From the IMG/VR virus record IMGVR_UViG_3300027985_001053: a stretch of 64,000 bases of DNA, one strand, 5' to 3'. A model generated the notes under the pieces. That model saw nothing but the letters and a program-made list of their open reading frames with translations. It ran no database searches and was not told the origin of the DNA. This stretch comes from a virus (lineage: Duplodnaviria > Heunggongvirae > Uroviricota > Caudoviricetes). The translations under genes were made by a program, and so were the position numbers. This document shows positions 41,834-60,104 of this stretch, in pieces; within the stretch, counting starts at the first letter, position 1, and every line of letters starts with the position of its first letter.

Positions 41834-43126
41834 ATGATTAGAGCTTTAGAAATTGTTACAATTCTACAGAATAACGGGTTTTATGCGTTATTTGTAGGAG
41901 GTTGTGTTAGGGATTCCCTTTTAGGATTGGAACCAAAAGATTACGATATCGTAACATCAGCTAGTCCAGAGCAAGTTGAAAGTTTATTCATTAATACTAT
42001 TTCTGTAGGCAAGGCTTTCGGAGTAATTGTAGTAGATTGTCATTATGAAGTAGCTACTTTTAGATTAGATAATTATACGAAAACGAATGACCTTACAGTT
42101 AAACTTTTAAATAACAAAGATTATTCTTTAGAATATTTGGTTCAGTTAGATTCTTCTAAAAGAGATTTAACCTGCAATGCTATTTATTTTGATCCTGTCT
42201 CCGCAGAATATTATAACCCTCAAGGAGGTATTGAAGACTTGTCAAATAGAAAACTACGATTTGTGGGAGATCTTGAAGAAAGGTGTATTGAAGACCCTAT
42301 AAGGATTTTAAGGTTTTTTAGATTTGCTATTCAGTATAATTTATACCAATCTTCTGAAGAACTAAAGTTAGTTTCTGGATTAGGTCATCTGTTATTAAAC
42401 GTTTCTAAGGAACGTATCTTTAAAGAGCTAACAAAAATATTGTATAGTATTAATCCTTCATCACGAGGTATTAGTTTAGAGTTACCTCATATTTTAAATA
42501 TTATTTTACCAGAGTTATCTGTAATGAAGAGTACTTCTCAAAATCCTAAGCATCATCCAGAAGGAAATGTATGGAACCATACAGTTTTAGCTTTAGAGTT
42601 TCTAAACGTAAGAACTCCTGAAACTCTTTGGGCAGCTTTACTTCACGATGTTGGAAAGATTTATACAACAAGAGGTTATGGTGATAACATAACTTCTTAT
42701 GACCACGAAACGGCAGGGTCTGTCGAAGCTGAACGGATCTTAAAAATGTTTAAATGCTCTAATAAGCTAATTAAGGAAGTTTCGTATTTAGTACAAAATC
42801 ATATGAGAATTAAGGCTTGTAGAGAAATGAAAGTTGCAAAGGTTGCTAGATTAGTACTTAATGAATATTTTAATAATCTTAAAGAAGTTTCTTTAGCTGA
42901 TTCTTTAGCAGGCAAAGGTGATATAACGTGGTGGTCTTGGCTAACCTCTTTTGAGGAGAGAACTCCCTATAAAAATACAGTAACTCCTTTAGTTACTGGG
43001 CATGATTTAATACTTGCTGGAAAACAACCAAATGAAAGTTTTAAAGGTTTACTAAAAAAAGCATTCGATATTCAGTTAGAATATCCTACTAAATCAAAAG
43101 AAGTTATCTTGAAGGAGTTATTATGA
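41834..43126 (+). CDS. cca: tRNA nucleotidyltransferase (class II, CCA-type) with HD domain
   Basis: VGGCVRD..LG...KDYD, RDLT.NA, EDPIRILR, HPEG.V..HT, LLHDVGK. Confidence 0.88.
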   Translation: MIRALEIVTILQNNGFYALFVGGCVRDSLLGLEPKDYDIVTSASPEQVESLFINTISVGKAFGVIVVDCHYEVATFRLDNYTKTNDLTVKLLNNKDYSLEYLVQLDSSKRDLTCNAIYFDPVSAEYYNPQGGIEDLSNRKLRFVGDLEERCIEDPIRILRFFRFAIQYNLYQSSEELKLVSGLGHLLLNVSKERIFKELTKILYSINPSSRGISLELPHILNIILPELSVMKSTSQNPKHHPEGNVWNHTVLALEFLNVRTPETLWAALLHDVGKIYTTRGYGDNITSYDHETAGSVEAERILKMFKCSNKLIKEVSYLVQNHMRIKACREMKVAKVARLVLNEYFNNLKEVSLADSLAGKGDITWWSWLTSFEERTPYKNTVTPLVTGHDLILAGKQPNESFKGLLKKAFDIQLEYPTKSKEVILKELL

Positions 43127-44424
43127 CAGCTACATTAGAAAAATTAAATAAAATTATGGAAGATAATAACGGGGAGTTATATTTAAGAGATACTCCAATT
43201 ACATCGCTACCTGAAGGGTTAACTGTTCCAGGTAACTTAGAGTTATGCGGTACTAAAATCACATCGTTACCAGAAGGTTTAAAAGTTGGGGGTAGTTTAG
43301 ATTTAAGCTATACTTTAATAGAATCGTTACCAGAAGGGTTAACCGTTGGAGGTAGCTTATATTTAGAAGGTACTAGAATTAAATCATTATCTGAAGGGTT
43401 AAAGGTTGGAGATAACTTAGATTTAAGAAATACTAAAATCACATCTTTACCAAAAGAATTAACTGTTGGGGATAGCTTAGATTTAAGAAATACTGAAATT
43501 ACAGTATTACCAGAAGGATTGTCTGTTGGAGGTAGCTTATGTTTAAGTAATACTCCAATTAAATCGTTACCAGAAGACTTAACGTTTGGAAGAGGCTTAT
43601 ATCTAAATCATACTCAGATTGAATCGTTACCAGAGGGGTTAAAAGTAAGTGGATATCTAGATTTAAGACATACTCCAATTACATCGTTACCTAAAGGGTT
43701 AAAGGTTGGAGGATATTTAGATTTAAGTAATACTCTAATTAAATTGTTACCAGAGGGATTAAAGGTTGGAGGTAGCTTAGATTTAAGACATACTCCAATT
43801 ACAGAATTACCAAGAAGGTTAACGGTTGGAAGAGACTTATATTTAAGAGATACTCAAATTAAATCGTTACCAAAAGGGTTAACTGTGGGAGATAATTTAT
43901 ATTTATACGGTACTAAGATAACATCGTTACCAAAAAGATTAAAGGTTGGTGATCGTGTCTATAGTTATTTACCTGAAAATAAAGTAAACTACACAAAACT
44001 TCAACAGGGTGATTATGTTAAAGATGAATATCTATATGCCGATGACATATTAACTCATATTAAAGCTAAAAAGTCTTTTGATAAATACACATATTTTATT
44101 GGAGAGTTTAAAGGTCGAAATGTTCTTTACGATGGAACTTATTATGCTCATTGTAAAAATATTAAGCAAGGAATTGAGGATCTTAACTTCAAACATGCTG
44201 AAGATAGAGGATCCGATCAATACAGAAATTTAAAGTTATCAAGTACTTTAACTTTTGAAGAATCTAAAACAATGTACAGGGTTTTAACAGGTGCTTGTAG
44301 GCAAGGTACTGAAAGCTTTATTAGTAACTTAAAAACAATAAAGGAACACTATACCATTCAGGAATTACTAGATTTGACTGTTGGTCAATATGGACATGAA
44401 ACTTTTAAGAAGTTTTTTAGTTAA
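43123..44424 (+). CDS. LRR-family paralog 1 (13 x 20-aa repeats + conserved C-terminal domain)
   Basis: Repeat LxLxxTxIxxLPxxLxVGGx on a 60-bp period. Confidence 0.9.
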   Translation: MTATLEKLNKIMEDNNGELYLRDTPITSLPEGLTVPGNLELCGTKITSLPEGLKVGGSLDLSYTLIESLPEGLTVGGSLYLEGTRIKSLSEGLKVGDNLDLRNTKITSLPKELTVGDSLDLRNTEITVLPEGLSVGGSLCLSNTPIKSLPEDLTFGRGLYLNHTQIESLPEGLKVSGYLDLRHTPITSLPKGLKVGGYLDLSNTLIKLLPEGLKVGGSLDLRHTPITELPRRLTVGRDLYLRDTQIKSLPKGLTVGDNLYLYGTKITSLPKRLKVGDRVYSYLPENKVNYTKLQQGDYVKDEYLYADDILTHIKAKKSFDKYTYFIGEFKGRNVLYDGTYYAHCKNIKQGIEDLNFKHAEDRGSDQYRNLKLSSTLTFEESKTMYRVLTGACRQGTESFISNLKTIKEHYTIQELLDLTVGQYGHETFKKFFS

Positions 44425-44449
44425 AAAGTGTAAGATAAGAGGAGATACT

Positions 44450-45631
44450 ATGGAATATACTTTAGAAAAATTAAATAAAATTATGGAAGATAATGATGGG
44501 GACTTAGATTTAAGCGTTACTCCAATTACATCATTACCTGAAGGGTTAACTATTGGAGGTAGCTTATATTTAAGTAAGACTCCAATTACATCATTACCTA
44601 AAGGGTTAAAGGTTGGAGGTTGGTTAGATTTAAGATATACTCCGATTAAATCATTGCCAAGAGATTTAACATTTGGAGGTAGCTTATGTTTAAGTTTTAC
44701 TCAAATTAAATCGCTGCCAAGAGGTTTAAAGGTTTTGGGTAACTTAGATTTAAGCTTTACTCAAATTACCTCGTTACCAGAAGAATTGTCTGTTGGCGGT
44801 AGTTTATATTTAAATAATACTCAAATTACATCGTTACCGAAAGGGTTAACTTTTGGAGGTTGGTTAGATTTAAGAAATACTAAAATTACATCGTTACCAG
44901 AAGGCTTGAAAGTGGGAAGAGACTTATATTTAAGTGATACTCCAATTTCATCATTACCAGGAGATTTAAAGGTCGGGGGATATTTAGATTTAAGCAATAC
45001 TCCAATTAAATCGTTACCAGAGGGGTTAACGGTTGAAAGAGACTTATATTTAGGAAATACTCCAATTAAATCGTTGCCTGAAGGGTTAACTGTTGGAGGT
45101 AGCTTATATTTAAAAGGTACTAAAATTAAATCTTTACCAAAAGGATTAAAAGTTGGAGGTACCATATTTAGCGATTTACCTAAAAATAAAGTCAAATACA
45201 CAAAACTTCAACAAGGTGATTATGTTGAAAATTCATATCTCTTTGCTGATGGAATTTTAACTCACATTAAAGCTAAAAAGTCTTTTGATAAATACACATA
45301 TTTTATTGAAGAGTTTAAAGGTCGAAATGTTCTTTACGATGGTATCTATTATGCTCACTGTAAAAATATTAAGCAAGGAATTGAGGATCTTACCTTTAAA
45401 CATGCTACAGATAGAGGGTCCGATCAATACAAAAATCTAAAATTATCCAGTACTTTATCTTTTGAAGAATCTAAAACAATGTATAGGGTTTTGACAGGTG
45501 CTTGTAAACAAGGAACTGAAAGTTTTGTTAATAATTTGAAAACAATAAAAGAACAGTATACCATTCAGGAATTACTAGATTTAACTGTTGGTCAATATGG
45601 TCATGAAATTTTTAAAAAGTTTTTTAATTAA
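44450..45631 (+). CDS. LRR-family paralog 2 (11 repeats)
   Basis: ATG 44450 after GAGGAG; same architecture. Confidence 0.9.
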   Translation: MEYTLEKLNKIMEDNDGDLDLSVTPITSLPEGLTIGGSLYLSKTPITSLPKGLKVGGWLDLRYTPIKSLPRDLTFGGSLCLSFTQIKSLPRGLKVLGNLDLSFTQITSLPEELSVGGSLYLNNTQITSLPKGLTFGGWLDLRNTKITSLPEGLKVGRDLYLSDTPISSLPGDLKVGGYLDLSNTPIKSLPEGLTVERDLYLGNTPIKSLPEGLTVGGSLYLKGTKIKSLPKGLKVGGTIFSDLPKNKVKYTKLQQGDYVENSYLFADGILTHIKAKKSFDKYTYFIEEFKGRNVLYDGIYYAHCKNIKQGIEDLTFKHATDRGSDQYKNLKLSSTLSFEESKTMYRVLTGACKQGTESFVNNLKTIKEQYTIQELLDLTVGQYGHEIFKKFFN

Positions 45632-45656
45632 AAAGCGTAAGATAAGAGGAGATACT

Positions 45657-46658
45657 ATGGAATATACTTTAGAAGAATTAAATAAAATGATGAAAGATAA
45701 GGATGGAAACTTAGATTTATACAATACTCAAATTAAATCGTTACCAGGAGATTTAAAGGTTGGAGGTAGCTTAGATTTAAGCAATACTCAAATTAAATCG
45801 TTACCAGGAGATTTAAAGGTTGGGGGTAACTTAGACTTAGAAGGTACTCAAATTACATCATTACCAGAAGGGTTAACTGTTGGAGGTTGGTTAGATTTAA
45901 GACATACTCAAATTACATCGTTACCAGGGGATTTAAAGGTTAGAGGTAACTTATATTTAAGCAATACTCCAATTAAATCGTTACCAAGAGATTTAAAAGT
46001 TGGTGGTAGCTTGGATTTAAGTAATACTCCAATTACATCATTACCTGAAGGGTTAAAGATTGGAGGTATCTTATATTTAAGCAATACTCCAATTAAATCG
46101 TTACCAAAAAGGTTAACGGTTGGAAGTTGGTTATATTTCAGAGATACTAAAATTAAATCGTTGCCAAGAGATTTAAAAGTTGGTGGAAACGTATCTAGTG
46201 ATTTACCTAAAAATAAAGTAAAATATATACAAATTCAACAAGGTGAGTATAGTGAAGCTGACTATCTGTATGCAGATGGAATCTTAACTCATATTAAAGC
46301 TAAAAAATATTTTGATAAATATACATATTTTATTGGAGAATTTAAAGATAAAAACGTACTTTATGATGGAACTTATTATGCTCATTGTGAAAACATTAAG
46401 CAAGGAATCGAGGATCTTAACTTTAAACATGCTAAAGATAGAGGTTCCGATCAATACAGAAATTTAAAGTTATCAAGTACTTTATCTTTTGAAGAATCAA
46501 AAACAATGTACAGGGTTTTAACCGGAGCATGTAGGCAAGGTACTGAAAGTTTTATTAATAACTTGAAAATAATAAAGGAACAGTATACAATACAGGAATT
46601 AATAGATTTAACTGTTAATCAATATGGTCATGAAGTTTTTAAGAAGTTTTTTAGATAA
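45657..46658 (+). CDS. LRR-family paralog 3 (8 repeats)
   Basis: ATG 45657 after an intergenic spacer almost identical to the one before paralog 2. Confidence 0.9.
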   Translation: MEYTLEELNKMMKDKDGNLDLYNTQIKSLPGDLKVGGSLDLSNTQIKSLPGDLKVGGNLDLEGTQITSLPEGLTVGGWLDLRHTQITSLPGDLKVRGNLYLSNTPIKSLPRDLKVGGSLDLSNTPITSLPEGLKIGGILYLSNTPIKSLPKRLTVGSWLYFRDTKIKSLPRDLKVGGNVSSDLPKNKVKYIQIQQGEYSEADYLYADGILTHIKAKKYFDKYTYFIGEFKDKNVLYDGTYYAHCENIKQGIEDLNFKHAKDRGSDQYRNLKLSSTLSFEESKTMYRVLTGACRQGTESFINNLKIIKEQYTIQELIDLTVNQYGHEVFKKFFR

Positions 46659-47015
46659 ATTATTACTATTTTTTAAGGTGTGAAACTTTGTAGTATGTAG
46701 TATGCCTCAGTTTATGTAATTATTTGAGGTATACAGGATATAGCATATAACCGTGAAGAACTTCATTTATATTTTTCAAGGCAAAGAACTCCAGACATAA
46801 AGGAGATACAAGTTATTTATCTCTATAACTTATTGAAAGGCCTTTGGCTTCTTACAGAAGAGAGATGGGCTGTACTTATTAAAAATCAACGCTATCTACA
46901 TATCTTGACTAAAGTTTATTATGATATAATCCTTGCACATTTATGACTCCCTATGATATACTACCTAAAGTCAGTATGGTTCTTATCTAGAATTGTACTA
47001 CTTTGGAGGATTATT

Positions 47016-47765
47016 ATGATAAAATTGCCGGGGTTATACGAAGAGACTTTTCTTTATTGTATTAGTAATCGAGGGGTTATTATAGAGGAAGGTTCTTTTA
47101 CAACTAAAGAGACGAAAGTTAGTCTACCCTGGAGGATACGTGCAAAGCAACCCCCTAATGTTAGTTGTACTATCTACAGGGAATCAACTAAAGAAGAAGA
47201 ATCCACTTTTTTACCATACAATTATAAACTTCATGCTCCGAAGTTCAATATTCCCAGAGGGAATTATCGCTTGGATATTTCATGGGATTATGTAGAGGAT
47301 AACTTATTAAGTTTTACGAAACGAGTAGGGCAGACTATAGATGAAGTACTGAATCCCGAGTTTCAACGAGGACACGTTTGGACAGAGCCTCAACAAATAG
47401 CTTATATTGAGTATATCTTTAAAGGTGGAACCTCTGGAAAAGATGTATATTTTAATTGCTCAGGATGGAATGACGGGTTGGCTGCACCGGTATATTGTGT
47501 AGATGGTTTACAAAGGATAACTGCTGTTCGACGGTTCATGAATAATGAAATTCCTGCCTTTGGTGTTTATTTAAAAGACTCTTCCGGAATTGATAGCTTA
47601 GATCAGGCTTTCTCATGGCATGTTTTAGACTTTAAAGAAATGTCCGAAGTTTTACAATGGTATGTAGATATGAACTCAAAAGGAACTTCGCATACTCAAG
47701 AAGAATTAGACAAGGTTCTCAATCTTAAAAAGAAAATGGAGCAAATCGATGAAAGGACGACATAA
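47016..47765 (+). CDS. DUF262 (GmrSD N-terminal/ParB-like) domain protein
   Basis: P.FQRG.VW...QQ..YIE, VDG.QR.TA..RF, N..GT; ATG 47016 after GGAGG. Confidence 0.75.
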   Translation: MIKLPGLYEETFLYCISNRGVIIEEGSFTTKETKVSLPWRIRAKQPPNVSCTIYRESTKEEESTFLPYNYKLHAPKFNIPRGNYRLDISWDYVEDNLLSFTKRVGQTIDEVLNPEFQRGHVWTEPQQIAYIEYIFKGGTSGKDVYFNCSGWNDGLAAPVYCVDGLQRITAVRRFMNNEIPAFGVYLKDSSGIDSLDQAFSWHVLDFKEMSEVLQWYVDMNSKGTSHTQEELDKVLNLKKKMEQIDERTT

Positions 47766-47977
47766 TTTTTTAAAAAGACTCGATGAAGTATACGCTAAAG
47801 ATTTTACATTTAGTATTAAAGAGTTTATAGATTATAATAACACTAAAGTTACTTGTACATGTTCTAAAGGGCATATTACTTTGAAACGTTCTAAGGACCT
47901 TTTATATATCTAATCTACGAAATCATCTTAGAGGTGTGACCAAACAATGCAGTGGCTGGAAGCTTGAAAAAATATAA
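47749..47977 (+). pseudogene. Frameshifted remnant of homing-endonuclease-type DNA-binding modules
   Basis: FLKRLDEVY...TKVTCTCSKGH stops at 47913; another frame continues SNLRNHLRG..KQCSGWK (NUMOD1-like). Confidence 0.4.
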
Positions 47978-47995
47978 TAAAACAAAGGAGATATT

Positions 47996-48487
47996 TTGAC
48001 GATAGATGATATTAAGAAAAATGAAGCCATAAAAATTAAGAATCTTCATATTAAGAATACAGAGAATCTAAAGAACTTAGAATTAAAAATAAACTCTTTG
48101 AGCAATGCGTTATCAATGGATTGTGATTACTTAAAGCTACGATTAGATAGAGCTAAGGAAGACTTAGTGTTAAAAGATTTTAATAAATGGGGGAATGCTT
48201 ACAGTTTTGTAAAGATTTTCTCACCACAGTTATGCTCTGTAGATGTTTTAATCGAGATGGAAAAGGTGTATTTAAAAGAAAGTACTCTTTTTAAGAATAA
48301 AAAAGACTTCGATAAATGGTTTCTAGATATACTAGACTATAAGCACGATGGTGCCTTAAGGTTGAAGTTTATTGAGGGGGATCATTATTTAGTGCATACT
48401 GTCCATATCCCAGAATTAGTTAAAGGAATTTTTGGAGTTTTGTATCACTTTCAAATAAGGCTTTTACGTTTATTTAGGAGGGATTAG
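47996..48487 (+). CDS. Hypothetical protein
   Basis: TTG start with AAGGAG RBS. Confidence 0.55.
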   Translation: MTIDDIKKNEAIKIKNLHIKNTENLKNLELKINSLSNALSMDCDYLKLRLDRAKEDLVLKDFNKWGNAYSFVKIFSPQLCSVDVLIEMEKVYLKESTLFKNKKDFDKWFLDILDYKHDGALRLKFIEGDHYLVHTVHIPELVKGIFGVLYHFQIRLLRLFRRD

Positions 48488-48670
48488 ATGGTTGAAAAAG
48501 ATTTGTTACAAGAAGAACTAAAGAAAAAGGAAGACCTTTATAGAAGCTTGTTATTGAAAGCATGTTTTAATAAAAAGTCTTACTATAACTCCGATACTTC
48601 TTCTACAGAAATATCTCTTATTAGAGAGGAAATAGAAATATTAAAAGATCAGCTTAAGGAGTATTCATGA
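48488..48670 (+). CDS. Small coiled-coil protein
   Basis: AGGAGG RBS. Confidence 0.5.
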   Translation: MVEKDLLQEELKKKEDLYRSLLLKACFNKKSYYNSDTSSTEISLIREEIEILKDQLKEYS

Positions 48671-49206
48671 TTTTAGCGATTACAGGATTTACTGCAAGTG
48701 GCAAAGATACTTTAGCAACGGAGCTTGCAAAGTACTTTCGTTTAGTGAAACCAACGACGTCACGTCCTCGAAGAGATGGGGAGATAGATACTTATCATTT
48801 TATCTCTTCGGACCAGTTTAAAAGCGATGTTGAGCAAGAGAAGTTCCTAGAGTATAGAGCTTACGATGTTAATTATAGAGGTGTTAAAGATACGTGGTAT
48901 TATGGTACCTCCTATAAAGAACTTAGCGATGATATTAATATTGTGATTACTGATATCGATGGTTTAAAATCTTTTAAGAACTCTGATTATATTGTAAAGT
49001 CGTTGTTCCTGGATGTGGATATTAGCCTTAGATTAGAGAGATGTAAATCTCGAGGAGACTTTGATGTGGTCGAGTTCTCGAGAAGATTAAAGGATGATTT
49101 GGTTAAATATCCTTCAGAGGTAGTATCCTCAGAAGTTGACGTTATTCTTGTAAATCCAACAATTGAAGAAGCTGTTGAAGCTGCAATGGATCTTGTGTGC
49201 GAGTAA
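48667..49206 (+). CDS. gmk: Guanylate kinase-like protein
   Basis: G..ASGKDT, TTSRPRR.GE...YHF, W.YGT, RGD. Confidence 0.8.
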   Translation: MILAITGFTASGKDTLATELAKYFRLVKPTTSRPRRDGEIDTYHFISSDQFKSDVEQEKFLEYRAYDVNYRGVKDTWYYGTSYKELSDDINIVITDIDGLKSFKNSDYIVKSLFLDVDISLRLERCKSRGDFDVVEFSRRLKDDLVKYPSEVVSSEVDVILVNPTIEEAVEAAMDLVCE

Positions 49207-50257: not shown

Positions 50258-50267
50258 TAGTCTTTAG

Positions 50268-50315
50268 TTGACATACATCCTACTAAATGTTACAATAAGT
50301 ATATTTAGTAGGAGG
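50268..50315 (+). promoter_or_regulatory. Sigma70 promoter inside 13-bp anti-SD hairpin
   Basis: TTGACA-17-TACAAT (TG-extended); 50278-90 pairs with 50301-13, covering AGGA of AGGAGG. Confidence 0.75.
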
Positions 50316-50319
50316 TTAT

Positions 50320-50676
50320 ATGACAAAAGTTCAATCAGCGGAAGAATCTGAAAAATATCTATTAAATGTTACCGGGCTGTCTAGTATACAGCTCGATTAT
50401 GTCGTTATGGAATATCTCTTCCATAAAGGTCGAATCGATCATCAATATATTAACAAAATTATGACTAATTTCGTAGCTGGTCTTAATTCTCTAAGGGACG
50501 AAGAGTGTCAGGGAAGAGCTGATGCAGAAACTACGGCAATAGCAGCATTGCACATGATTGATAAAAACAGAATTTGTTTGAAAAAGAATGCTCCATGGGT
50601 AAGCGTTATTAAAAGATACTTATCAAACTTTAAAAGCGTTAATTTACGAGGAATTAATGAAAAATTTTTAAAATGA
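50320..50676 (+). CDS. Hypothetical protein
   Basis: AGGAGG RBS. Confidence 0.6.
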   Translation: MTKVQSAEESEKYLLNVTGLSSIQLDYVVMEYLFHKGRIDHQYINKIMTNFVAGLNSLRDEECQGRADAETTAIAALHMIDKNRICLKKNAPWVSVIKRYLSNFKSVNLRGINEKFLK

Positions 50677-50725
50677 TTTTTGAAGTTAGTATTAAGCCAT
50701 AGTATTCAAAAGAGGAGAAGATAAT

Positions 50726-52027
50726 ATGAAGTTTACTTTAGAAGAATTAAATAGAATGATGAAAGATAAGGATGGAAATTTAGATTTAAGACATACTCAA
50801 ATTACATCATTACCAAAAGGGTTAACGGTTGGAGGATATTTAGATTTAAGAAATACTCCAATTAAATCATTACCTGAAGGGTTAACCGTTGGAAGAAACT
50901 TAGATTTAGAAGATACTAAAATTAAATCGTTACCAGAAGGGTTAAAAGTAAGGGGATATTTAGATTTAAGCAATACTCCAATTACATCATTACCAGAGGG
51001 GTTAACCGTTGGAGGTAACTTAGATTTAAGAAATACTAAAATTAAATCGTTACCTGAAGGGTTAACCGTTGGAGATAGCTTAGATTTAAGTAATACTCCA
51101 ATTACAACATTACCAGAAAGGTTAACGATTGGAGGATATCTAACTTTAGAAAATACTCAAATTAAATCGTTACCGAAAGGCTTAAAAGTTGGAGGAGGTT
51201 TATATTTAAGCAATACTCCAATTACATCGTTACCAGAAGGGTTAACAGTTAAAGGATATCTAGATTTAAGCTATACTTCAATTATATCATTACCTAATGG
51301 GTTAAAGGTTGAAGGTTGGTTAGATTTAAGAAATACTAAAATTAAATCGTTACCAGAAGGGTTAACGGTTGGAGGTAGTTTATATCTAAGAAATACTCAA
51401 ATTAAATCATTGCCTAAAGGATTAACTGTTGGAAGAGACTTATTTTTAAGATATACTCAAATTACATCATTACCAGAAGGATTAACCGTTGGAAGAGACT
51501 TATATTTAAAAGGTACTAAAATTAAATCGTTGCCAAGAGATTTAAAAGTTGGTGGAAAAATCTATAGTGATTTACCAGAAAGTGAATTAAACTATACAAA
51601 ACTTCAACAAGGTGATTATGTTGAAGCTGCATACCTATATGCCGATGAAATATTCACTCACATTAAATCTAAAAAATCTTTTGATAAATACACATATTAT
51701 ATTGGTAAAATTAAAGATAAAAATGTACTTTATGATGGTACATATTATGCACATTGTGAAAACATCAAACAAGGAATTGAGGACATTAACTTCAAACATG
51801 CTAAAGATAGAGGATCAGAGCAATACAGAAATCTAAAGTTATCAAGTACTTTATCTTTTGAAGAATCTAAAACAATGTTCAGGGTTTTAACCGGTGCTTG
51901 TAGGCAAGGTACTGAAAGTTTTATTGAAAATTTGAAAGAAGTACAAGATCAGTATACTATTCAGGAATTACTAGATTTGTCTGTTAATCAGTATGGTCAT
52001 GAAACTTTTAAGAAGTTTTTTAGGTAA
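50726..52027 (+). CDS. LRR-family paralog 4 (13 repeats)
   Basis: Same architecture; GAGGAG RBS. Confidence 0.9.
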   Translation: MKFTLEELNRMMKDKDGNLDLRHTQITSLPKGLTVGGYLDLRNTPIKSLPEGLTVGRNLDLEDTKIKSLPEGLKVRGYLDLSNTPITSLPEGLTVGGNLDLRNTKIKSLPEGLTVGDSLDLSNTPITTLPERLTIGGYLTLENTQIKSLPKGLKVGGGLYLSNTPITSLPEGLTVKGYLDLSYTSIISLPNGLKVEGWLDLRNTKIKSLPEGLTVGGSLYLRNTQIKSLPKGLTVGRDLFLRYTQITSLPEGLTVGRDLYLKGTKIKSLPRDLKVGGKIYSDLPESELNYTKLQQGDYVEAAYLYADEIFTHIKSKKSFDKYTYYIGKIKDKNVLYDGTYYAHCENIKQGIEDINFKHAKDRGSEQYRNLKLSSTLSFEESKTMFRVLTGACRQGTESFIENLKEVQDQYTIQELLDLSVNQYGHETFKKFFR

Positions 52028-52180
52028 AAAGAGTGTTTTAGCATTCCTATTATGTGTACTGTACTAGTAATGATTATGTAAACATTTTCGGTAAAATTAG
52101 GCATTAAAGGTCTTACTAGTAGTATTTTTTTAAGAATGCTTATACACTACGTTAGCAGGTTTATGATGAAAGGAGTTTAA

Positions 52181-52678: not shown

Positions 52679-52692
52679 GCAAAGGAGCTTTT

Positions 52693-53169: not shown

Positions 53170-53708
53170 ATTATTTAGAAATAGAACGTAAATGGCTTAT
53201 TACGTTGGAAGCTTACAACAAATTAACAGAAAAACCTGTGAAAGTTAACTTTTTACATCAGTTTTATGTCAATCCTATGAATACAGGTAATACTGTAATT
53301 AGGTATCGATCTGATATTACCTATAGCTATGACAACGATTATAAGCTTACTAATGTAAGTGTTCCGAAATATTATCAGACCATAAAAACAGGATCTGGTT
53401 TGCTTCGAGAAGAGTTTGAAGTAGAGATTTCTGAGAGTTTTTGGAAAGAAGCTTTAAACTTCATACCTAGCCCGAGACAAGAAGTTATAAAAACTCGAAT
53501 TGTTACGGAAGAGGGTTATGAGGTGGACAAGTACTTTAATAGATTAGAAGGCTTGCATACAGTAGAGAAAGAATTCGCTTCTATAGAAGATGCGTCTAAG
53601 TTTACAGCTCCAAGTTTATTTGGAGAAGAGGTTACAGATAAAATGTACTACGGCAATGCTCATTTAGCAACATTGTCTGATGGAACATTTAAGAAGGGTA
53701 TTTCATGA
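53166..53708 (+). CDS. CYTH (triphosphate tunnel metalloenzyme) domain protein
   Basis: EIERKWL, TIK.G.G..R.E.E, K.R, EVD, EKEF, FG.EVT...Y.N. Confidence 0.85.
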   Translation: MNYLEIERKWLITLEAYNKLTEKPVKVNFLHQFYVNPMNTGNTVIRYRSDITYSYDNDYKLTNVSVPKYYQTIKTGSGLLREEFEVEISESFWKEALNFIPSPRQEVIKTRIVTEEGYEVDKYFNRLEGLHTVEKEFASIEDASKFTAPSLFGEEVTDKMYYGNAHLATLSDGTFKKGIS

Positions 53709-54160
53709 GTTATATTTTAGCAATGATTATCGGGCATTTTGTAGGAGATTATCTTTTCCAAACAAGCAAAATGGCGGCAAACAAAAATAAGAGAAAGCTA
53801 TTAGGATGGGGCTGGGCTATTTTTCATGGTTTGGTTTACAGTTTTATGGTGGTGTTAGTTATGGTATACTTTTATCCTGAGCTTTTAGCAGATTTTAGGA
53901 TTATTTTATTTTGGGGATTTACCTGGATAACTCATGCACTAATAGATCATTATTCTTTTGCCAAGCATTGGAGTATATTTATGGCCTCTGATACTTTACC
54001 AAACTTTAACGATGACCTTATTTCTAAGTATGAGTATCCTAGAACTACAGCAGAAATTTTTAAGATTTCTTTTACCTCTGTAGTATATATTGTGGTTGAT
54101 AATACTTGGCATATTGTTTTACAATCAGTTTTTCTAATTGAAACTTTTGGGAGATTTTAA
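53705..54160 (+). CDS. DUF3307-like membrane protein
   Basis: HF.GDY.FQT, HG..Y, H..ID, DN.WH in TM segments. Confidence 0.75.
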   Translation: MSYILAMIIGHFVGDYLFQTSKMAANKNKRKLLGWGWAIFHGLVYSFMVVLVMVYFYPELLADFRIILFWGFTWITHALIDHYSFAKHWSIFMASDTLPNFNDDLISKYEYPRTTAEIFKISFTSVVYIVVDNTWHIVLQSVFLIETFGRF

Positions 54161-54202
54161 AAAGACTATTGACTTAGGCATTAATACTTGCTAATGTTAG
54201 TT

Positions 54203-54592
54203 ATGACAAAAGCCGTTTTAAAAGATCGTATAACTAAAGCACTGAAAATAAAATCAGTAAAGTACTCAGAGGAAGTTTTTTATGATTGTTTAGCGTATTT
54301 AAACTCGGAGATGATAAGCCCTCAACCTTTAGGCTTTTTTGATTTAAAAACGCCTTTAGGATTTGGGGCCCATTCTGAAAAAACTCTTGAAGATTTGTTG
54401 GAAGAAAATCCTTATTATGTAAATTGGTTAATAAAAAATCACGTAATTGACATCTCTAATCAAGACTACAATATTATTAAAAAGAGGTTAAAGACTGTTA
54501 AGAACAGGAATATACGGCATTATACTAAAAGAGAGCCTATAGAGAAAAGAGAAAACATAAGTCTCGAGATTCAGGGCTATATTACTTTCTAG
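54203..54592 (+). CDS. Protein with exodeoxyribonuclease-X-like/DUF3820 small domain
   Basis: FG.H...TLEDLLEENP.YVNWL; probable leaderless ATG at 54203. Confidence 0.55.
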   Translation: MTKAVLKDRITKALKIKSVKYSEEVFYDCLAYLNSEMISPQPLGFFDLKTPLGFGAHSEKTLEDLLEENPYYVNWLIKNHVIDISNQDYNIIKKRLKTVKNRNIRHYTKREPIEKRENISLEIQGYITF

Positions 54593-54622
54593 AAAAATCC
54601 TTAGAATAAGCGTATACTGTTA

Positions 54623-54838
54623 TTGTTGCGAAAGCTGATGAATGGAGGAAGATACGAAGAGATTTTATATAAAGATAGGTATATTGCTAACTTGCCTATC
54701 TATTATTATGCTGAGGAAATATATTTGGGTCCAACCGAATTTACGAGTGGTATTAGTGTATTTAAAACTTACCGGTATAATCTGGGGGATTACAATAAGT
54801 ATTTTCTTTGTCGTGGCTTTTACTATAGGTTTTCTTAA
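54623..54838 (+). CDS. Hypothetical protein (start uncertain)
   Basis: ORF only; competing ORFs in other frames. Confidence 0.3.
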   Translation: MLRKLMNGGRYEEILYKDRYIANLPIYYYAEEIYLGPTEFTSGISVFKTYRYNLGDYNKYFLCRGFYYRFS

Positions 54839-54889
54839 GAGGAAATCGCTTAAAACCACTTACCTAGAGATTAAAGAGGTAATCTATAC

Positions 54890-55105
54890 ATGCTTGATTT
54901 AAAGGAATGCTGCCAGCCAGTAACATCAAAAATTTTTAAAGTAAATGGCCGGTATTATGTTGTTGAAAAAGAAGTAAATGGGTGCCTTGGTTGTTGTTTT
55001 ATTAATAATCAAGAGCCGTGCCTTGTTTACGATACTACGAGTAAACTCTTTGCTCAGATTGGAAAATGTGCTACTACTAAGTTTATATTTAAGGAGATAG
55101 AATGA
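54890..55105 (+). CDS. Small Cys-containing hypothetical protein
   Basis: GCLGCCF...C motif; GAGG RBS. Confidence 0.5.
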   Translation: MLDLKECCQPVTSKIFKVNGRYYVVEKEVNGCLGCCFINNQEPCLVYDTTSKLFAQIGKCATTKFIFKEIE

Positions 55106-55410
55106 AATTATTTACAAAACTACATGCGTCTAAAACGCCTAAGCAACCACCTCTTTTCATAGAGTCTTCTGACATCTTGAAGATTATATCAGAGTCTCTT
55201 GAAATACCTATTGATACTATCCGAAGTTTTTCACGTTTTAAGGAAGACTTAGGAGCAGATGATTTGGATTTATATGAGATTATTTACAAAATAGAGTCTT
55301 CTCACAATTTAATATTTAGAAGGTATTGTAATTTGACAGCTATTAGTAAGTTTGTTTTAGTTCAGGATATTTACGATGACCTGTATCAGCTAGGGGTAAA
55401 AGTTATATGA
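55102..55410 (+). CDS. Acyl-carrier-protein-like protein lacking the phosphopantetheine Ser
   Basis: IISE.L.I.......F.EDLGADDLD..EI...IE matches ACP, but GADSLD reads GADDLD (D54). Confidence 0.7.
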   Translation: MKLFTKLHASKTPKQPPLFIESSDILKIISESLEIPIDTIRSFSRFKEDLGADDLDLYEIIYKIESSHNLIFRRYCNLTAISKFVLVQDIYDDLYQLGVKVI

Positions 55411-55598
55411 AAAAAATATTAAGTGTATTATTGCCCATCACCTCTCTCGTGTTTATTGCTCTTTTCATGATAGGGTCTTACGATATCCTGGTGCAAATAA
55501 TGGATTTACAGCTTCAGGCTATTAAAGATAATTGGCATTATATCGTTGGGTTTTTTATTACGTTAGTAATAAATCTTAGTTTTTTCTTAAAGAGGTAG
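55407..55598 (+). CDS. Small two-TM protein
   Basis: Two hydrophobic helices. Confidence 0.5.
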   Translation: MKKILSVLLPITSLVFIALFMIGSYDILVQIMDLQLQAIKDNWHYIVGFFITLVINLSFFLKR

Positions 55599-55600
55599 TC

Positions 55601-55957
55601 ATGATTTCGCTAAATACTTTAAAAATAAACGAAGGATCTTCGTGTAAGAATTGTAATGGATCTATTTGGGTGTCAGAAGGGTTTAATCGTTTTGTATGCC
55701 CACGATGTAATGGTTCTGGTGTAGAGCCAACGGTATCTCCTGAACAGTATAAAGAAGCCTCTAATACTCTATTAGCTTTTCTTATTTTAACTAATAAAGA
55801 CATCTTTATATATATTCCTCTGGAAGATTTCCATCTCTATGTTCCAAGTCTATTATTTTATAAAGATAAGTATTACTATAATGGTATCAGAGTTAAATCA
55901 TCTAAGATAGCTAAGAAACCATGTCTAGTAAAGAACGGGTTCCGACAATATCTGTAA
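55601..55957 (+). CDS. DnaJ-type CxxCxG zinc-finger protein
   Basis: CKNCNGS...CPRCNGSG. Confidence 0.6.
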   Translation: MISLNTLKINEGSSCKNCNGSIWVSEGFNRFVCPRCNGSGVEPTVSPEQYKEASNTLLAFLILTNKDIFIYIPLEDFHLYVPSLLFYKDKYYYNGIRVKSSKIAKKPCLVKNGFRQYL

Positions 55958-55998
55958 GATTTATAACTCTCATCATCTTTTTAAATTAAGGAATTAAC

Positions 55999-57105
55999 AT
56001 GCACAGTATAAATGTCTTAAGTCTCTTTGATGGAATAAGCGGAGGAAGGCTGGCTTTTCAAAAAGCTAATATTCCTGTAAATAAATATTATAGCAGTGAG
56101 GTTGAAAAAGCTCCTATTTCGATAGCTGATAAAAATTGGCCCATGGACACGAAATACCGTCTAGGAGATGTTAGAAATATTGACATTTCTAAATTAGATA
56201 AGATTGATATTCTTATTGGTGGAAGTCCTTGTCAATCTTTCTCGCTGGCTGGTAAACGAAATGGGATGTCTACAAAAGAAAAAATAGAAGTATTGACTTT
56301 AGAACATTACCTTACACTAAAGTCACAAAACTTTGTTTTTGAAGGACAGTCTTACCTTTTTTGGGAATATATGAGGATTCTCAAAGAACTTCAAGCCATA
56401 AATCCTAATGTATTGTTTTTTTTAGAAAATGTAAATATGACTAAAAAGTGGGAAAGTGTTTTAACTTCGGCAATTGGCGTAAATCCAATCAGCATTAATT
56501 CGTCTTTAGTATCTGCTCAGAATAGAAAACGTCTTTATTGGACAAATATTCCTGGAGTTACTCAACCCGAAGATAAAGGAATTCTTCTGAAGGATATTGT
56601 TCTCCCAAATACTATTCCTGTTGCATTACACAATCTCTATGGAGGTTTTAAAGAAACATCCATAAGAGTATTTGAGGGTAAATCTCCTACTATAAGAACT
56701 GCTTCAGGTGGTGGTCATATACCTTCATTTGTTACAGAAGCGTTATTACATTCTGAAAAAGCAATAGCGTATATGAATAGAACAGTTAAAGGTGGTAGAA
56801 ATCCCTGGGACTTTAAGCATCATTCTGATATTAGAAATCCAAAATCAGCAGCAGTTGTAGCTAATTTCTTTAAAGGAGTTCCTTACAATGTTTTTAAAGA
56901 TTGGCATGTTATTAGAAAGTTTCATCCTATAGAGTGCGAACGGTTGCAAACTTTACCGGATAATTACACCGAAGGGGTTTCTCCAACACAACGATACTCG
57001 GCAATTGGTAATGGATGGACTATCGATGTTATTGCTCATATCTTTAAAGGTATTTTCTCTTCAAGAGAAACTATACCTACTGACAATTTTGTTTTTGGTT
57101 ACTAA
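55999..57105 (+). CDS. DNA (cytosine-5) methyltransferase
   Basis: SLFDG, GGSPCQ, ENV, Q.R.RLYW, ERLQT, GNGW. Confidence 0.92.
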   Translation: MHSINVLSLFDGISGGRLAFQKANIPVNKYYSSEVEKAPISIADKNWPMDTKYRLGDVRNIDISKLDKIDILIGGSPCQSFSLAGKRNGMSTKEKIEVLTLEHYLTLKSQNFVFEGQSYLFWEYMRILKELQAINPNVLFFLENVNMTKKWESVLTSAIGVNPISINSSLVSAQNRKRLYWTNIPGVTQPEDKGILLKDIVLPNTIPVALHNLYGGFKETSIRVFEGKSPTIRTASGGGHIPSFVTEALLHSEKAIAYMNRTVKGGRNPWDFKHHSDIRNPKSAAVVANFFKGVPYNVFKDWHVIRKFHPIECERLQTLPDNYTEGVSPTQRYSAIGNGWTIDVIAHIFKGIFSSRETIPTDNFVFGY

Positions 57106-57128
57106 GCTATATTTATTGTTTTATACAA

Positions 57129-57174
57129 TAGACAAAACATTTTAAATACTATAAGCTCTTTTTATAAGGAGCTT
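57129..57174 (+). promoter_or_regulatory. Sigma70-like promoter with anti-SD hairpin
   Basis: TAGACA-17-TAAGCT; AAGCTC (57153-58) pairs with GAGCTT (57169-74). Confidence 0.6.
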
Positions 57175-57422
57175 TGATTTTGAAAGAAGTATATATAGTG
57201 TCATGTATTATTACGTTACTAGGAATTTTATTGGTTATTTCTGGAGCAGGTTTACCTCGAAAAGAGAACTCTCTCAACGAAGATAGGGTCTCTTTTTATT
57301 TTTATACCTTTATGGGATTATCTCATAGATTAAAACTGTACTATTATTCCCTTGTCCCAGAGTTAAGTAAGATAGTTCAAGAGTATGAATCATCTCCAGC
57401 GATTACAAAGGATATTTTATGA
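57174..57422 (+). CDS. Small membrane protein
   Basis: N-terminal TM. Confidence 0.5.
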   Translation: MILKEVYIVSCIITLLGILLVISGAGLPRKENSLNEDRVSFYFYTFMGLSHRLKLYYYSLVPELSKIVQEYESSPAITKDIL

Positions 57423-57760
57423 TAGGACTTATATATCTATGTGTTGTAGCTCTTTTAGCTTGGGTCTTAACATACTTTACGAGAGCTAAGACCTTAAGCT
57501 CACCTAAACAAATAGAGGCTTTTATCATGAATGAAAAAACATGGTCTAATATTAAAGCTTTTGACCCAAAATTCGCAAATGACGGATCTTATAGAGGATG
57601 TAAGGTGGTTATATCAGATCTTATATTGGATAATGAGGTTTTTGTTAAGTATCGAGCAGCTTCTCAGTATATTGAGTTATCTATTGGCCTCTATATTCCA
57701 GAACCTTTTAAAGAATCTCCTGCGATCAAGACCATTAATTTAGACCAGGCTTTCGATTGA
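57419..57760 (+). CDS. Membrane-anchored hypothetical protein
   Basis: N-terminal TM; C-terminal stretch resembles that of the previous ORF (QEYESSPAITK vs EPFKESPAIK). Confidence 0.5.
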   Translation: MIGLIYLCVVALLAWVLTYFTRAKTLSSPKQIEAFIMNEKTWSNIKAFDPKFANDGSYRGCKVVISDLILDNEVFVKYRAASQYIELSIGLYIPEPFKESPAIKTINLDQAFD

Positions 57761-58191
57761 ATTTAACAATAAAAACTTTACAGGATGAAAAAGACCTTAA
57801 AAATCTTTTAGAGTTTATTAGTAAGCAGGAACAATATTATCCAAACTTTAAAGATTGGGTTTTTGGTAAACTCCAGAATAGGTTAGAGAATACATCCTAT
57901 AAAAGTTTGATAGCTGTTGAGAATAAGGCTATTCTTGGTTGTTTGGTTTATTCAGATGTTGAAGATATAACCTATATAAAGAATTTCAGAATAGATACCT
58001 TTTATCAGAATAGGTCTTTAGGAACTTTTCTCCTTAATCAGATAGTAGGGAAAAACTCCATTATTACAGATATTACAACTACCAATTTTAAAGCTGTTGA
58101 GTTTTTTATTAAACAAGGTTTTAAAATAGCTTCTATGGAAGAGCTTTATTTGAAAGGGCAGCAGGAATACATTATAAAGAAAAGTCTTTAA
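57757..58191 (+). CDS. GNAT acetyltransferase
   Basis: IKNF.I...YQNRSLGT.LL, N..AV.FF...GF. Confidence 0.75.
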   Translation: MNLTIKTLQDEKDLKNLLEFISKQEQYYPNFKDWVFGKLQNRLENTSYKSLIAVENKAILGCLVYSDVEDITYIKNFRIDTFYQNRSLGTFLLNQIVGKNSIITDITTTNFKAVEFFIKQGFKIASMEELYLKGQQEYIIKKSL

Positions 58192-58211
58192 ACGTCATGT
58201 TAAGTGCTGAG

Positions 58212-58240
58212 AGCATATTTTTCTAGGAAGTATGCTTTTT
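58212..58240 (+). terminator. Probable intrinsic terminator
   Basis: AGCATATTTT pairs with GAAGTATGCT, followed by TTTT. Confidence 0.55.
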
Positions 58241-58415
58241 AAAGTCTTTGTTGAAAAGGCCTCAGTAAGAATAACACCTCGGGATAAACCCTTCTTTAGT
58301 AAATAAGAAAATTCTAGCCTTCCTATAGAAAGGGTTATTCCTAAAACGCAATATTTTCTAGTAAATGATTGACATAATTATTATATACGTCTACTATGTT
58401 GAAAGGAGTTTATTA

Positions 58416-58681
58416 GTGGATTTAAAATTAACTGATTTGAAAAATGATTTAGGCTTATTAGAGACAACTAAATCTTGTTTAGAGCAAGAAATAGCTCTTT
58501 AAAAAGAAGCTATTTCTATGCATCTATGCCCTTACAAGGTTGGTGACTTTATCAATAGGTTTAGATTAAAAAATGATCGAGAGTTTTATAAACAGCCTGT
58601 TAGGGCCTGGATGCGGATACGTATGATTCAATAGAATTTGATTTAAATAACACAGTTATATCAGGAGGAAATGATAATTGA
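58416..58681 (+). pseudogene. Disrupted small phage ORF
   Basis: TTGACA-17-TACTAT promoter, AAGGAG RBS and GTG start; in-frame TAA at 58500, after which the frame continues with CPYKVGD. Confidence 0.45.
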
Positions 58682-58986
58682 AAGATTTTAACATAGGTGA
58701 TGTTGCCTATAGGATGATACGTCCTACAGAAACAGTTACAGGAGAATGTGCTTTACCTGTAACCATAGAAAGTGTTGTTAAAGAAGAATCAAATCAGGGA
58801 ACTGTTATCATAAAATATTATGTAACCTACGGAACTTTTGACGAAGGAGATTATTTAGAGCCTAAATATCTTTTTGCGTCAAAACAAGAAGCTCTTGATG
58901 GTATGAAAAAGATATTGTGTGAAGATTTGATTAAACTTAATGATAAAATCTTGAAGATAAATAATGCTTTGGAGGAAATAAGATGA
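58678..58986 (+). CDS. Hypothetical protein
   Basis: F.IGD.AY start motif, AGGAGG RBS. Confidence 0.55.
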   Translation: MKDFNIGDVAYRMIRPTETVTGECALPVTIESVVKEESNQGTVIIKYYVTYGTFDEGDYLEPKYLFASKQEALDGMKKILCEDLIKLNDKILKINNALEEIR

Positions 58987-60104
58987 AATGTTCTTTAGAA
59001 GAATTAAATAAACTGATGGATGGAAATTATGGAGACTTAGATTTAAGTCATACTCCAATTACCTCGGTACCTAAAGGGTTGAAAGTTGGAGGTAGTTTAG
59101 ATTTAAGCAATACTCAAATTACCTCTTTACCAGGAGATTTAAAGGTTGGAGGTAGCTTAGATTTAAGAAATACTCCAATTAAATCGTTACCAGAAGGCTT
59201 GAAAGTGGGAAGAGACTTATATTTAAGGGATACTCCAATTTCATCATTACCAGGAGATTTAAAGGTGGGAGGTTGGTTAGATTTAAGAAATACTAAAATT
59301 AAATCGTTACCAGAAAGGTTAACTGTTGGAGGACATTTAAATTTAGAAAATACTCCAATTAAATCATTACCTGAAGGATTAACTGTTGGCGGTTGGTTAG
59401 ATTTAAGAAATACTCCAATTTCATCATTACCAGGAGATTTAAAGGTCGGCGGATATTTAGATTTAAGCCGTAATCCAATTACATCGTTACCTGAAGGGTT
59501 AACCGTTGGAGGTAGCTTATGTTTAGGAAGTACTTCAATTACATCGTTACCTGAAGGGTTAACGGTTGGAGGCAACTTATATTTAGAAAATACTAAAATT
59601 AAATCGTTACCAAAAGATTTAAAAGTTGGAGGTACCATATTTAGCGATTTACCTGAAAGCGAACTAAACTACACAAAACTTCAACAAGGTGATTATGTTG
59701 AAAACTCATACCTCTTTGCTGATAGAAGCTTAACTCACATTAAATTTAAAAAGTCTTTTGATAAGTACACATATTTTATTGGAGAGTTTGAAGGTCAAAA
59801 CGTACTTTACGATGGTACATATTATGCACATTGTAAAAACATTAAACAAGGAATCGAGGATCTTAACTTTAAACATGCTAAAGATAGAGGATCTGATCAC
59901 TATAAAAATCTAAAATTATCAAGTATCTTAACTTTTGAGGAATCTAAAACAATGTACAGGGTTTTAACCGGAGCATGTAGGCAAGAAACTGAAAGTTTTG
60001 TTAATAACTTAAAAACAATAAAAGAGCAGTATACCGTTCAGGAATTAGTAGATTTAACTGTTAATCAATATGGGCATGAAACTTTTAAGAAGTTTTTTAA
60101 TTGA
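58983..60104 (+). CDS. LRR-family paralog 5 (10 repeats)
   Basis: Same architecture; GGAGG RBS. Confidence 0.9.
   Translation: MKCSLEELNKLMDGNYGDLDLSHTPITSVPKGLKVGGSLDLSNTQITSLPGDLKVGGSLDLRNTPIKSLPEGLKVGRDLYLRDTPISSLPGDLKVGGWLDLRNTKIKSLPERLTVGGHLNLENTPIKSLPEGLTVGGWLDLRNTPISSLPGDLKVGGYLDLSRNPITSLPEGLTVGGSLCLGSTSITSLPEGLTVGGNLYLENTKIKSLPKDLKVGGTIFSDLPESELNYTKLQQGDYVENSYLFADRSLTHIKFKKSFDKYTYFIGEFEGQNVLYDGTYYAHCKNIKQGIEDLNFKHAKDRGSDHYKNLKLSSILTFEESKTMYRVLTGACRQETESFVNNLKTIKEQYTVQELVDLTVNQYGHETFKKFFN

Follow-up and report, generated by a model that had tools for sequence, protein, structure and literature searches.

A 64,000-nucleotide stretch of DNA from an uncultured large phage of the Caudoviricetes (IMG/VR virus record IMGVR_UViG_3300027985_001053), referred to below as the window, encodes five paralogous leucine-rich repeat (LRR) proteins, here named A to E, in which a solenoid of 20-residue repeats is followed by a constant C-terminal domain (C-domain). 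In our estimate it is about an even bet (probability near 0.5) that these proteins are cytoplasmic binders made early in infection. The concave face of the LRR would recognise partners, the constant C-domain would give a common function, and multiplication of the paralogs would widen the target range. This reading draws on the anatomy of the proteins and on their pattern of conservation and substitution rates. It also takes into account that an export signal is missing, where the genes lie and that the family is phage-specific in its distribution. The five genes had been described before in an earlier note, which was made from the sequence alone.

Tandem Repeats Finder detected five arrays of 60-bp repeats at positions 43177-43949, 44503-45161, 45710-46183, 50774-51535 and 59036-59634. 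When the five proteins are written in register, starting at residue 18, they contain 13, 11, 8, 13 and 10 exact 20-residue repeats with zero indels, and the total of 55 agrees with the count of the earlier note. All five share a 17-residue N-cap with the pattern MxxTLEELNKMM..G.L.L and a 156-residue C-terminal region, which is 76-82% identical between copies and carries the motifs YAHC and LTGAC. These common ends had also been recognised before, and in some distant relatives the Cys of YAHC is replaced by Gly. The highest mean of any 19-residue Kyte-Doolittle window in the five proteins is 0.94. Hence, they possess neither a membrane segment nor a signal peptide, the latter as proposed previously.

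All five genes lie on the + strand and have strong Shine-Dalgarno sites 6-9 nt before the ATG. Paralog A (43123..44424, 433 residues, Shine-Dalgarno site GAAGGAG) has its 13 repeats at 43174..43953 and its 156-residue linker and conserved C-terminal domain at 43954..44421. Paralog B (44450..45631, 393 residues) comprises 11 repeats (44501..45160) and the C-domain (45161..45628), paralog C (45657..46658, 333 residues) 8 repeats (45708..46187) and the C-domain (46188..46655). Paralog D (50726..52027, 433 residues) again has 13 repeats (50777..51556) followed by the C-domain (51557..52024), and paralog E (58983..60104, 373 residues) has 10 repeats (59034..59633) with the C-domain at 59634..60101. 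The open reading frames (ORFs) of paralogs B and C are open from TTG 44381 and TTG 45588, respectively, and the database gene calls (413 and 353 residues) begin at an upstream ATG, within the 3' end of the paralog before (44381-44449 and 45588-45656). Since the conserved N-cap and a Shine-Dalgarno site are found at ATG 44450 and ATG 45657, these are the true starts; for paralog B the site is AAGAGGAGA, 6 nt upstream, and the protein then begins with the family N-cap MxxTLE. With two more copies outside the window on the same 129,693-bp contig (P0015, 279 residues, and P0018, 253 residues), the family has at least seven members in this genome. A scan of IMG/VR for other copies on the contig found no relative, and a scan of metagenomes found one distant locus only.

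The five proteins are true LRR proteins, with Pfam scores of 40-50 bits for LRR_4 (cut-off 27) and 27-37 bits for LRR_1 (cut-off 20.6) in each of them. The repeat consensus is xLxLxxTxIxSLPxxLxVGG. Its scaffold is nearly invariant, as the earlier note had stated: among the 55 repeats L2, I9 and L16 are present in 55, L4, T7, L12 and P13 in 54, S11 in 51 and V18 in 49, and the lowest count is that of G19 with 47. AlphaFold2 modelled paralog E (model m4da768e8ed53, from an alignment of ten-repeat members) with a predicted local distance difference test score (pLDDT) of 93 and a predicted template modelling score of 0.83. In this model an N-cap helix (residues 5-13) leads into the solenoid, whose repeats have two short strands each (positions 2-3 and 17-18), and the C-domain comes last; the strand at positions 2-3 occurs in every repeat. 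In standard LRR geometry L2 and L4 point toward the core and x1, x3 and x5 toward the concave surface, while x6 and x8 lie on the ascending rim. Judged from the strand positions of the model, the variable positions 1, 3, 5 and 6 would thus be placed on the concave side.

A Foldseek search with the model of paralog E gave 47 LRR matches in the PDB at E <= 1e-3. The best of them was FlrP (PDB 8Z5U; E 4.5e-9, with 34% identity in 220 aligned columns); SHOC2, Leptospira LRR proteins, SlrP, IpaH, SspH and YopM came next. FlrP belongs to the polar flagellar motor of Vibrio, where this LRR protein sits on the rod (bioRxiv 10.64898/2025.12.04.692373). It is the best match of the LRR part in both structure and sequence, and is likewise a short-repeat beta-solenoid that binds other proteins. 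However, FlrP has a mass of 21.5 kDa, resides in the periplasm, carries a Sec signal peptide, lacks a C-terminal domain and is a single-copy motor part, whereas the phage proteins have no signal peptide and carry the C-domain of about 150 residues. Since FlrP is periplasmic, Sec-exported and stand-alone, only the repeat class is shared.

Compared with the short bacterial LRR class, the phage repeats have a length of exactly 20 residues with LP at positions 12-13, but the second LP is replaced by LxVGG (LPxxLxVGG versus LPxLP). Moreover, they do not form the Asn ladder of the YopM/IpaH class, its place being taken by Thr in 54 of the 55 repeats and in 91% of 766 repeats from homologues. IpaH, SspH, SlrP and YopM resemble the phage proteins in their 20-residue repeats with the LP motif and in their fold (E 1e-4 to 1e-6), and IpaH-type proteins also place a variable LRR before a constant C-terminal domain. 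Yet SlrP and IpaH match over the LRR only. The phage proteins have no NEL domain and are consequently not members of the IpaH family; as probable early proteins of a phage they also differ from substrates of type III secretion. Of the parallel to IpaH that had been drawn before, the architecture therefore stands, whereas the missing NEL domain and the Thr in place of the ladder Asn speak against more; the likeness is an analogy of architecture only.

Per-position entropy among the 55 repeats is highest at position 1 (2.66 bits), followed by positions 6 (2.42), 5 (2.21), 8 (2.07), 14 (1.82) and 3 (1.65). Values of 1.1-2.1 bits at positions 8, 10, 14, 15, 17 and 20 indicate that variation extends beyond the concave face. 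Position 1 uses S, N, Y, D and W. At position 3, 48 of the 55 repeats have D or Y, 40 have R or S at position 5, and position 6 is encoded for the most part by NAT codons (N, D, H, Y) in addition to G. Relative to the other proteins of the window, W, Y, D and N are overrepresented 3.2-fold, R 2.5-fold and S 2-fold at the four concave positions, and K (0.19-fold) and F (0.27-fold) are depleted; the enrichment of H is not significant. The same alphabet is used by the 766 repeats of 115 homologues from other contigs, with S 28%, W 19%, N 14%, D 11%, G 9% and Y 9% at position 1, D 54% and Y 25% at position 3, and S 41% and R 28% at position 5. In 809 family repeats, 766 of them from these homologues, we counted 389 distinct four-letter concave words, and W1 was nearly always paired with D3 (114 versus 8). 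The earlier note had described the strand residues as freely varying and rich in W, Y, F, H, R and D. The enrichment of W, Y, D and R stood, but the alphabets are small, F is depleted and H does not differ significantly. Similarly, the fastest-changing positions are indeed the concave x positions, but to call this face hypervariable overstates a restricted, family-wide alphabet that is accompanied by convex variation.

Between the paralogs, the C-domain shows a ratio of nonsynonymous to synonymous substitution rates (dN/dS, omega) of 0.15-0.26 at a dS of 0.41-0.59. Thus, the paralogs are old and maintained under purifying selection. For the LRR, each repeat was compared with its nearest-neighbour repeat (43 pairs), and the proportion of nonsynonymous differences (pN) in a site class was related to that of synonymous differences (pS) at all sites, with 95% bootstrap intervals. 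The resulting pN/pS was 1.25 (0.97-1.62) for the concave positions 1, 3, 5 and 6, 0.87 (0.58-1.23) for positions 8 and 10, 0.6 (0.41-0.80) for convex variable positions and 0.15 (0.10-0.22) for the scaffold. In colinear, close ten-repeat homologues from gut metagenomes 50-53% of the concave sites differ, compared with 6-15% in the C-domain and 4-11% in the scaffold. Codon-level omega of the concave sites was 1.27-1.56 in one valid pair and 0.69-0.83 in the other, with about 0.2 in the C-domain. A third pair (P0012/P0033) has a first repeat of 21-22 residues that put the site classes out of register, and it was disregarded together with its share of the pooled figures. The concave face is therefore turned over at about the neutral rate, 5-8 times faster than the rest of the protein.

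The diversifying selection suggested earlier was not borne out, as concave dN/dS is about 1 with an interval that includes 1. Although this is the neutral value, an outcome that the earlier note had named as refuting its own reading, the strongly non-random alphabet argues against plain neutrality. We regard the concave face as turning over under constraint within a favoured alphabet, which is compatible with changing binding specificities and falls short of proof of positive selection. Repeat shuffling contributes as well. In the gut-metagenome homologues P0016 and P0019, which are 87% identical, the pS of the LRR (0.27-0.49) is 2-3 times that of the C-domain (0.135), which suggests that the LRR segment was exchanged by recombination between alleles.

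Repeats of different paralogs do not correspond by position, apart from the last one and a few neighbouring pairs (B7-B8 with E3-E4), and the mean pairwise nucleotide identity of the repeats is 75.5%. A diversity-generating retroelement, which places a reverse transcriptase and a template repeat near the variable region, is not indicated: no reverse transcriptase was found with Pfam or PHROGs among many, though not all, of the ORFs of the window, the large ones included, and the variation is spread across 55 repeats in five genes, TGG codons included. Nor was a clear sign of recent gene conversion between paralogs seen: the best repeat pairs (92-95% nucleotide identity) do not clearly exceed the similarity expected for 60-nt windows from the divergence of the C-domain.

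Modelled alone, the C-domain (paralog D, model m1bafd0bdc77d) reached a pLDDT of 95 and consists of a beta-sheet half followed by a helical half. No match was found in Pfam, PHROG, NCBIfam or PADLOC, a profile search of the PDB gave nothing at E <= 10, and the named clusters of the ESM Atlas contained no usable match. The structure search proposed by the earlier note likewise returned no fold match from this confident model (best E 0.2 with Foldseek against the PDB), and VIA-align over 48,161 chains found partial sub-domains only (best Z 4.5). Structural neighbours in AFDB, BFVD and the Atlas are uncharacterised phage or prophage members of the same family. With no family or fold match, the claim of a common effector or adaptor activity could not be substantiated, as no activity is assignable. 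Nevertheless, polar residues are conserved over 52 diverse members (D307, D337, H343, K357, R362, Y385, R386, T389, C392, E414 and Y423 in the numbering of paralog D), a sequence pattern that suggests a defined functional site. The family motifs D..YAH(C/G), FK, R, YRxITGAC, E, GQYG and FF are present in all five proteins; the Cys of YAHC is retained in 36 of the 52 members and is Gly in 15. A likeness of the Y..T..C motif to the PcfJ-like domain (PF14284) was considered and not supported: hhalign of the C-domain against a shallow profile of three PcfJ domains gave a probability of 0.18% (E 0.34), and none of the 52 members matched PF14284 at E <= 1. A predicted homodimer of the C-domain scored 0.02, which carries no weight either way.

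An exhaustive HMMER search (E <= 1e-3) gave at least 811 clusters of the C-domain at 50% identity, and in these the domain is nearly always C-terminal. Its N-terminal partners are the 20-residue LRR described here, other 20-residue 'VGG' variants, BspA-type LRRs, beta-solenoid repeats of 8-12 residues, or none. Single members have a DUF7448 N-terminus or a weak match, below cut-off, to a YdaS-like helix-turn-helix (HTH). Hence, the modular combination of a variable LRR with a constant domain, noted before for the five proteins, recurs family-wide. There are 959 full-length relatives. The C-domain clusters are almost all from phages or prophages, with Uroviricota as the source of the ESM Atlas clusters and uncharacterised phage proteins as the BFVD matches. 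A search of 72,556 plasmids gave no match, and among isolated phages the domain is confined to three lineages; Riemerella phages vB_RanS_CRP5 and CRP6 and Tetrasphaera phage TJE1 are cultured carriers. A scan of 185,579 species genomes yielded 72 loci, most of them in gut Clostridia and the remainder in Bacteroidota, Proteobacteria, Elusimicrobia, Melainabacteria and one metagenome-assembled genome (MAG) of a methanogen.

In the relatives the gene is found among lysogeny or early genes. At 21 loci with full flanks, the neighbours within 6 kb were an integrase (9 loci), a LexA-like cI (S24) repressor (5), SSB (5), a Cro-type HTH protein (4) and VRR-NUC (4), and C5 and Dam methylases, a DnaD-like initiator and ArdC also recurred; all these recurrent neighbours are of the lysogeny or early type. 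Genes for ERF, exonuclease, helicase and replisome organizer surround the member in Tetrasphaera phage TJE1, in Riemerella phage CRP6 and in a phage from lemur gut; in two prophages it comes after the cI/Cro switch, and on a 66-kb metagenomic contig it is surrounded by small unannotated ORFs and genes for a nucleoid-associated protein and DNA methyltransferases. SSB was a further neighbour in this set. In all six phages and prophages examined the gene thus belongs to a lysogeny-switch or replication module, and in none of the six to a structural module. In the record of phage TJE1 (39193-39867) the deposited orf51 spans the C-domain only, and the LRR part is hidden under orf50 on the opposite strand, which is probably a mis-call. 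Contig00008 of the cultured Ruminococcus sp. LCP21S3_E8 contains two members about 8 kb apart, near an ArdC-like anti-restriction gene and a beta-clamp-like gene, and this strain could be tractable for experiments.

The window itself is AT-rich (about 32% GC) with every gene on the + strand, and encodes T4-like baseplate and tail-fibre proteins, a clamp loader, an SbcCD-like nuclease, an NAD-dependent ligase, dihydrofolate reductase and a CCA-adding enzyme. Near-identical DNA was not found in 50,697 phage records, so that the phage is without a close cultured relative; the stretch is present in two DNA runs, one of them labelled hydrothermal vent metagenome. Genes for dihydrofolate reductase, the CCA-adding enzyme, guanylate kinase, a NinI-like phosphatase, a DNA methyltransferase, an acetyltransferase, a GmrSD_N-domain protein and small unknown ORFs are the neighbours of the paralogs. 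The gene for the CCA-adding enzyme and paralog A share nucleotides of stop and start codon (ATGA), and paralogs B and C come after paralog A at 26-nt spacings. Paralog D is the second gene downstream of a near-consensus sigma-70-type promoter with an extended -10 element (TTGACA-17-TACAAT, 50268..50296, + strand), the first being the ORF 50320-50676. Paralog E overlaps with its ATG the stop codon of a small ORF (58678-58986), which is itself preceded by the sigma-70-like promoter TTGACA-17-TACTAT (58369..58397, + strand). For the unit of paralogs A, B and C a possible promoter with a weak -10 element was read by eye, below the scan threshold (TTGACA-17-TAGTCT, 41733..41761, + strand). Located just past a terminator at 41695-41716, it could drive the CCA-adding enzyme gene together with the three paralogs; a terminator scan of the window was not above shuffled sequences. 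The T4-type late promoter TATAAATA, a motif of T4 that may not be that of this phage, had 18 matches in the window compared with 16.7 expected and none upstream of the five genes. Within the leader of the promoter before paralog D (50268-50322, + strand) lies a perfect inverted repeat of 10 bp (CCTACTAAAT/ATTTAGTAGG), and its 3' arm overlaps the Shine-Dalgarno site of ORF 50320.

Taken together, the missing export signal, the host-type promoters, the neighbours of early or nucleotide-metabolism type and the lysogeny-switch or replication modules of the relatives favour the intracellular role that the earlier note had proposed. Early timing, protein binding by the concave face, distinct targets for each paralog and any activity of the C-domain are what we infer beyond this. 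Transcription would occur early by the host RNA polymerase, and the proteins would act in the cytoplasm of the infected cell. The concave face of the LRR may serve as the recognition surface, changing fast within a Y/W/D/N/R/S alphabet that is typical of binding sites, and the constant C-domain presumably carries a common activity, as an adaptor or an enzyme. At least seven copies with differing repeat numbers and concave words would then form a panel of binders, plausibly directed against host defence or housekeeping proteins.

Several observations weigh against these binders. The concave omega is statistically indistinguishable from 1; consequently, relaxed constraint and repeat shuffling could explain much of the variability. 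The restricted family-wide alphabet, with D or Y at position 3 and the W1-D3 pairing, could partly reflect packing rules of the solenoid and not ligand contacts. No catalytic or adaptor fold is recognisable in the C-domain. Family members with one, two or zero repeats exist, and so the C-domain by itself can carry the function, and the proteins may not need their LRR. No RNA runs containing the stretch are listed. Finally, tail and replication genes are interspersed in the window, and position is therefore weaker evidence here than in the temperate relatives. It is the gene context, the non-neutral alphabet and the repeat-less members that separate the readings discussed in the following.

A more specific form of the binder reading is tentative, and we rate it well below even odds. 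It holds that the proteins constitute a germ-line repertoire of intracellular LRR 'antibodies', in which each concave word would single out its own host protein, such as a sensor or effector of host defence, and the shared C-domain would inactivate, modify or hand over the target. Lamprey variable lymphocyte receptors and engineered repebodies combine a fixed LRR scaffold with diversity on the concave strand positions and a paratope rich in Y, W, D, N, R and S. The phage proteins share this fixed scaffold, the concave-face diversity and the alphabet. In the lymphocyte receptors, however, diversity arises by somatic cassette copying in one locus, whereas the phage has few germ-line paralogs, a narrower alphabet and an omega of about 1. 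If true, such a repertoire would add a new, modular class to phage counter-defence, and nature would have supplied a compact scaffold for binders.

Similarly unlikely, in our view, is that the function resides wholly in the C-domain, as a regulator of the lysogeny switch, of replication or of transcription (anti-repressor-like, for example). The LRR would then be a drifting spacer, scaffold or solubility module on partly redundant paralogs, and slippage during replication together with recombination would let repeat number and surface drift near-neutrally. C-domains commonly stand alone or follow just one or two repeats, the domain is joined to unrelated solenoids (BspA-type, 8-12-residue repeats, other 20-residue variants), and the gene often directly follows Cro/cI-type regulators. 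The concave omega near 1, the lack of positional repeat orthology apart from the last repeat, and the sign of recombination in the one close pair with higher synonymous divergence in the LRR than in the C-domain also point in this direction. On the other hand, a concave alphabet resembling that of binding sites is kept across phyla, and drift in a genome of 32% GC would erode it, while the depletion of K is in fact five-fold. Purifying selection keeps at least seven copies intact in one genome, and concave positions change faster than convex variable ones. If the proteins are regulators after all, the family marks the early accessory region.

A location on the virion is less probable still. 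According to this explanation the C-domain docks on the capsid or tail, comparable to the C-terminal domain of T4 Hoc or to DUF7941, and the variable LRRs bind ligands on the host surface or in the environment as a set of fibres or decorations with several specificities, so that the family would mark host-range determinants. LRR, BspA and beta-solenoid modules are typical of surface adhesins, virion proteins need no signal peptide, and baseplate and tail-fibre genes are present in the same window. In addition, the Goslar proteins gp22, gp23, gp86, gp92 and gp161, DUF7941 paralogs of the Chimalliviridae, were proposed to be tail-associated host-recognition elements (PMC13742148), and they also form a multi-copy phage family with a constant module and variable binding domains, LRR or beta-helix included. 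The DUF7941 module, however, is N-terminal, belongs to tail fibres and is specific to Chimalliviridae, whereas the present domain is C-terminal, unrelated in sequence and located in early modules. A DUF7941 match in Pfam was not obtained for the five proteins at E <= 1, nor was there a match to another virion protein. Moreover, the six examined phages and prophages all place the gene in a lysogeny, early or replication module and none of them in a structural one, the recurrent neighbours at the 21 further loci are of that type too, and in the window the genes are co-oriented and overlap with the CCA-adding enzyme gene and small early-type ORFs behind sigma-70-like promoters.

That the proteins are lysogenic-conversion effectors with targets in the bacterium's eukaryotic host, in the manner of IpaH, SspH, SlrP and YopM, and as proposed for an LRR protein of the Edwardsiella prophage Edno5 regarded as an effector-like LRR ligase (PMC6372524), is highly improbable in spite of the 20-residue repeat length of the YopM/IpaH class and weak sequence and fold matches to type III effector LRRs, because an NEL or other known effector domain is missing, no secretion signal is visible to the tools used, the source is a hydrothermal-vent metagenome, the relatives occur in prophages of gut Clostridia, Bacteroidota, Elusimicrobia, Melainabacteria and a methanogen MAG outside any type III secretion setting, and the Edno5 protein, whose ligase idea rests on LRR similarity only, shares just the LRR part with the phage proteins.

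The family is large and phage-borne and is not described in the literature found, which contained no publication on it; the modular design of a repeat binder is known, the constant domain itself is undescribed. If the cytoplasmic binder reading is correct, a very common unnamed phage module (at least 811 clusters) is placed where temperate phages keep their anti-restriction and host-takeover genes. The function of the C-domain, once known, would give thousands of genes now called 'hypothetical' in gut phages and prophages an annotation and could reveal new ways of disarming or rewiring the host. The 20-residue scaffold with four designable positions per repeat and its natural usage of W, Y, D, N, R and S would also be a ready-made framework for small binders.

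Two further genes of the region may be mentioned. The gene directly after paralog C (46953-47765, + strand) encodes a GmrSD_N (DUF262) domain (E 3.5e-9). GmrSD_N is the N-terminal module of type IV restriction enzymes, and its presence is odd for a phage early block. At 39294-41306 (+ strand) a 670-residue protein of phrog_1735 is encoded, for which about 47% identity is kept across 541 phage records. The hosts of these phages are very diverse (Bacillus, Salmonella, Klebsiella, Vibrio and Caulobacter), and the labels of the protein vary, YfaP or galactose-binding-like being among them.

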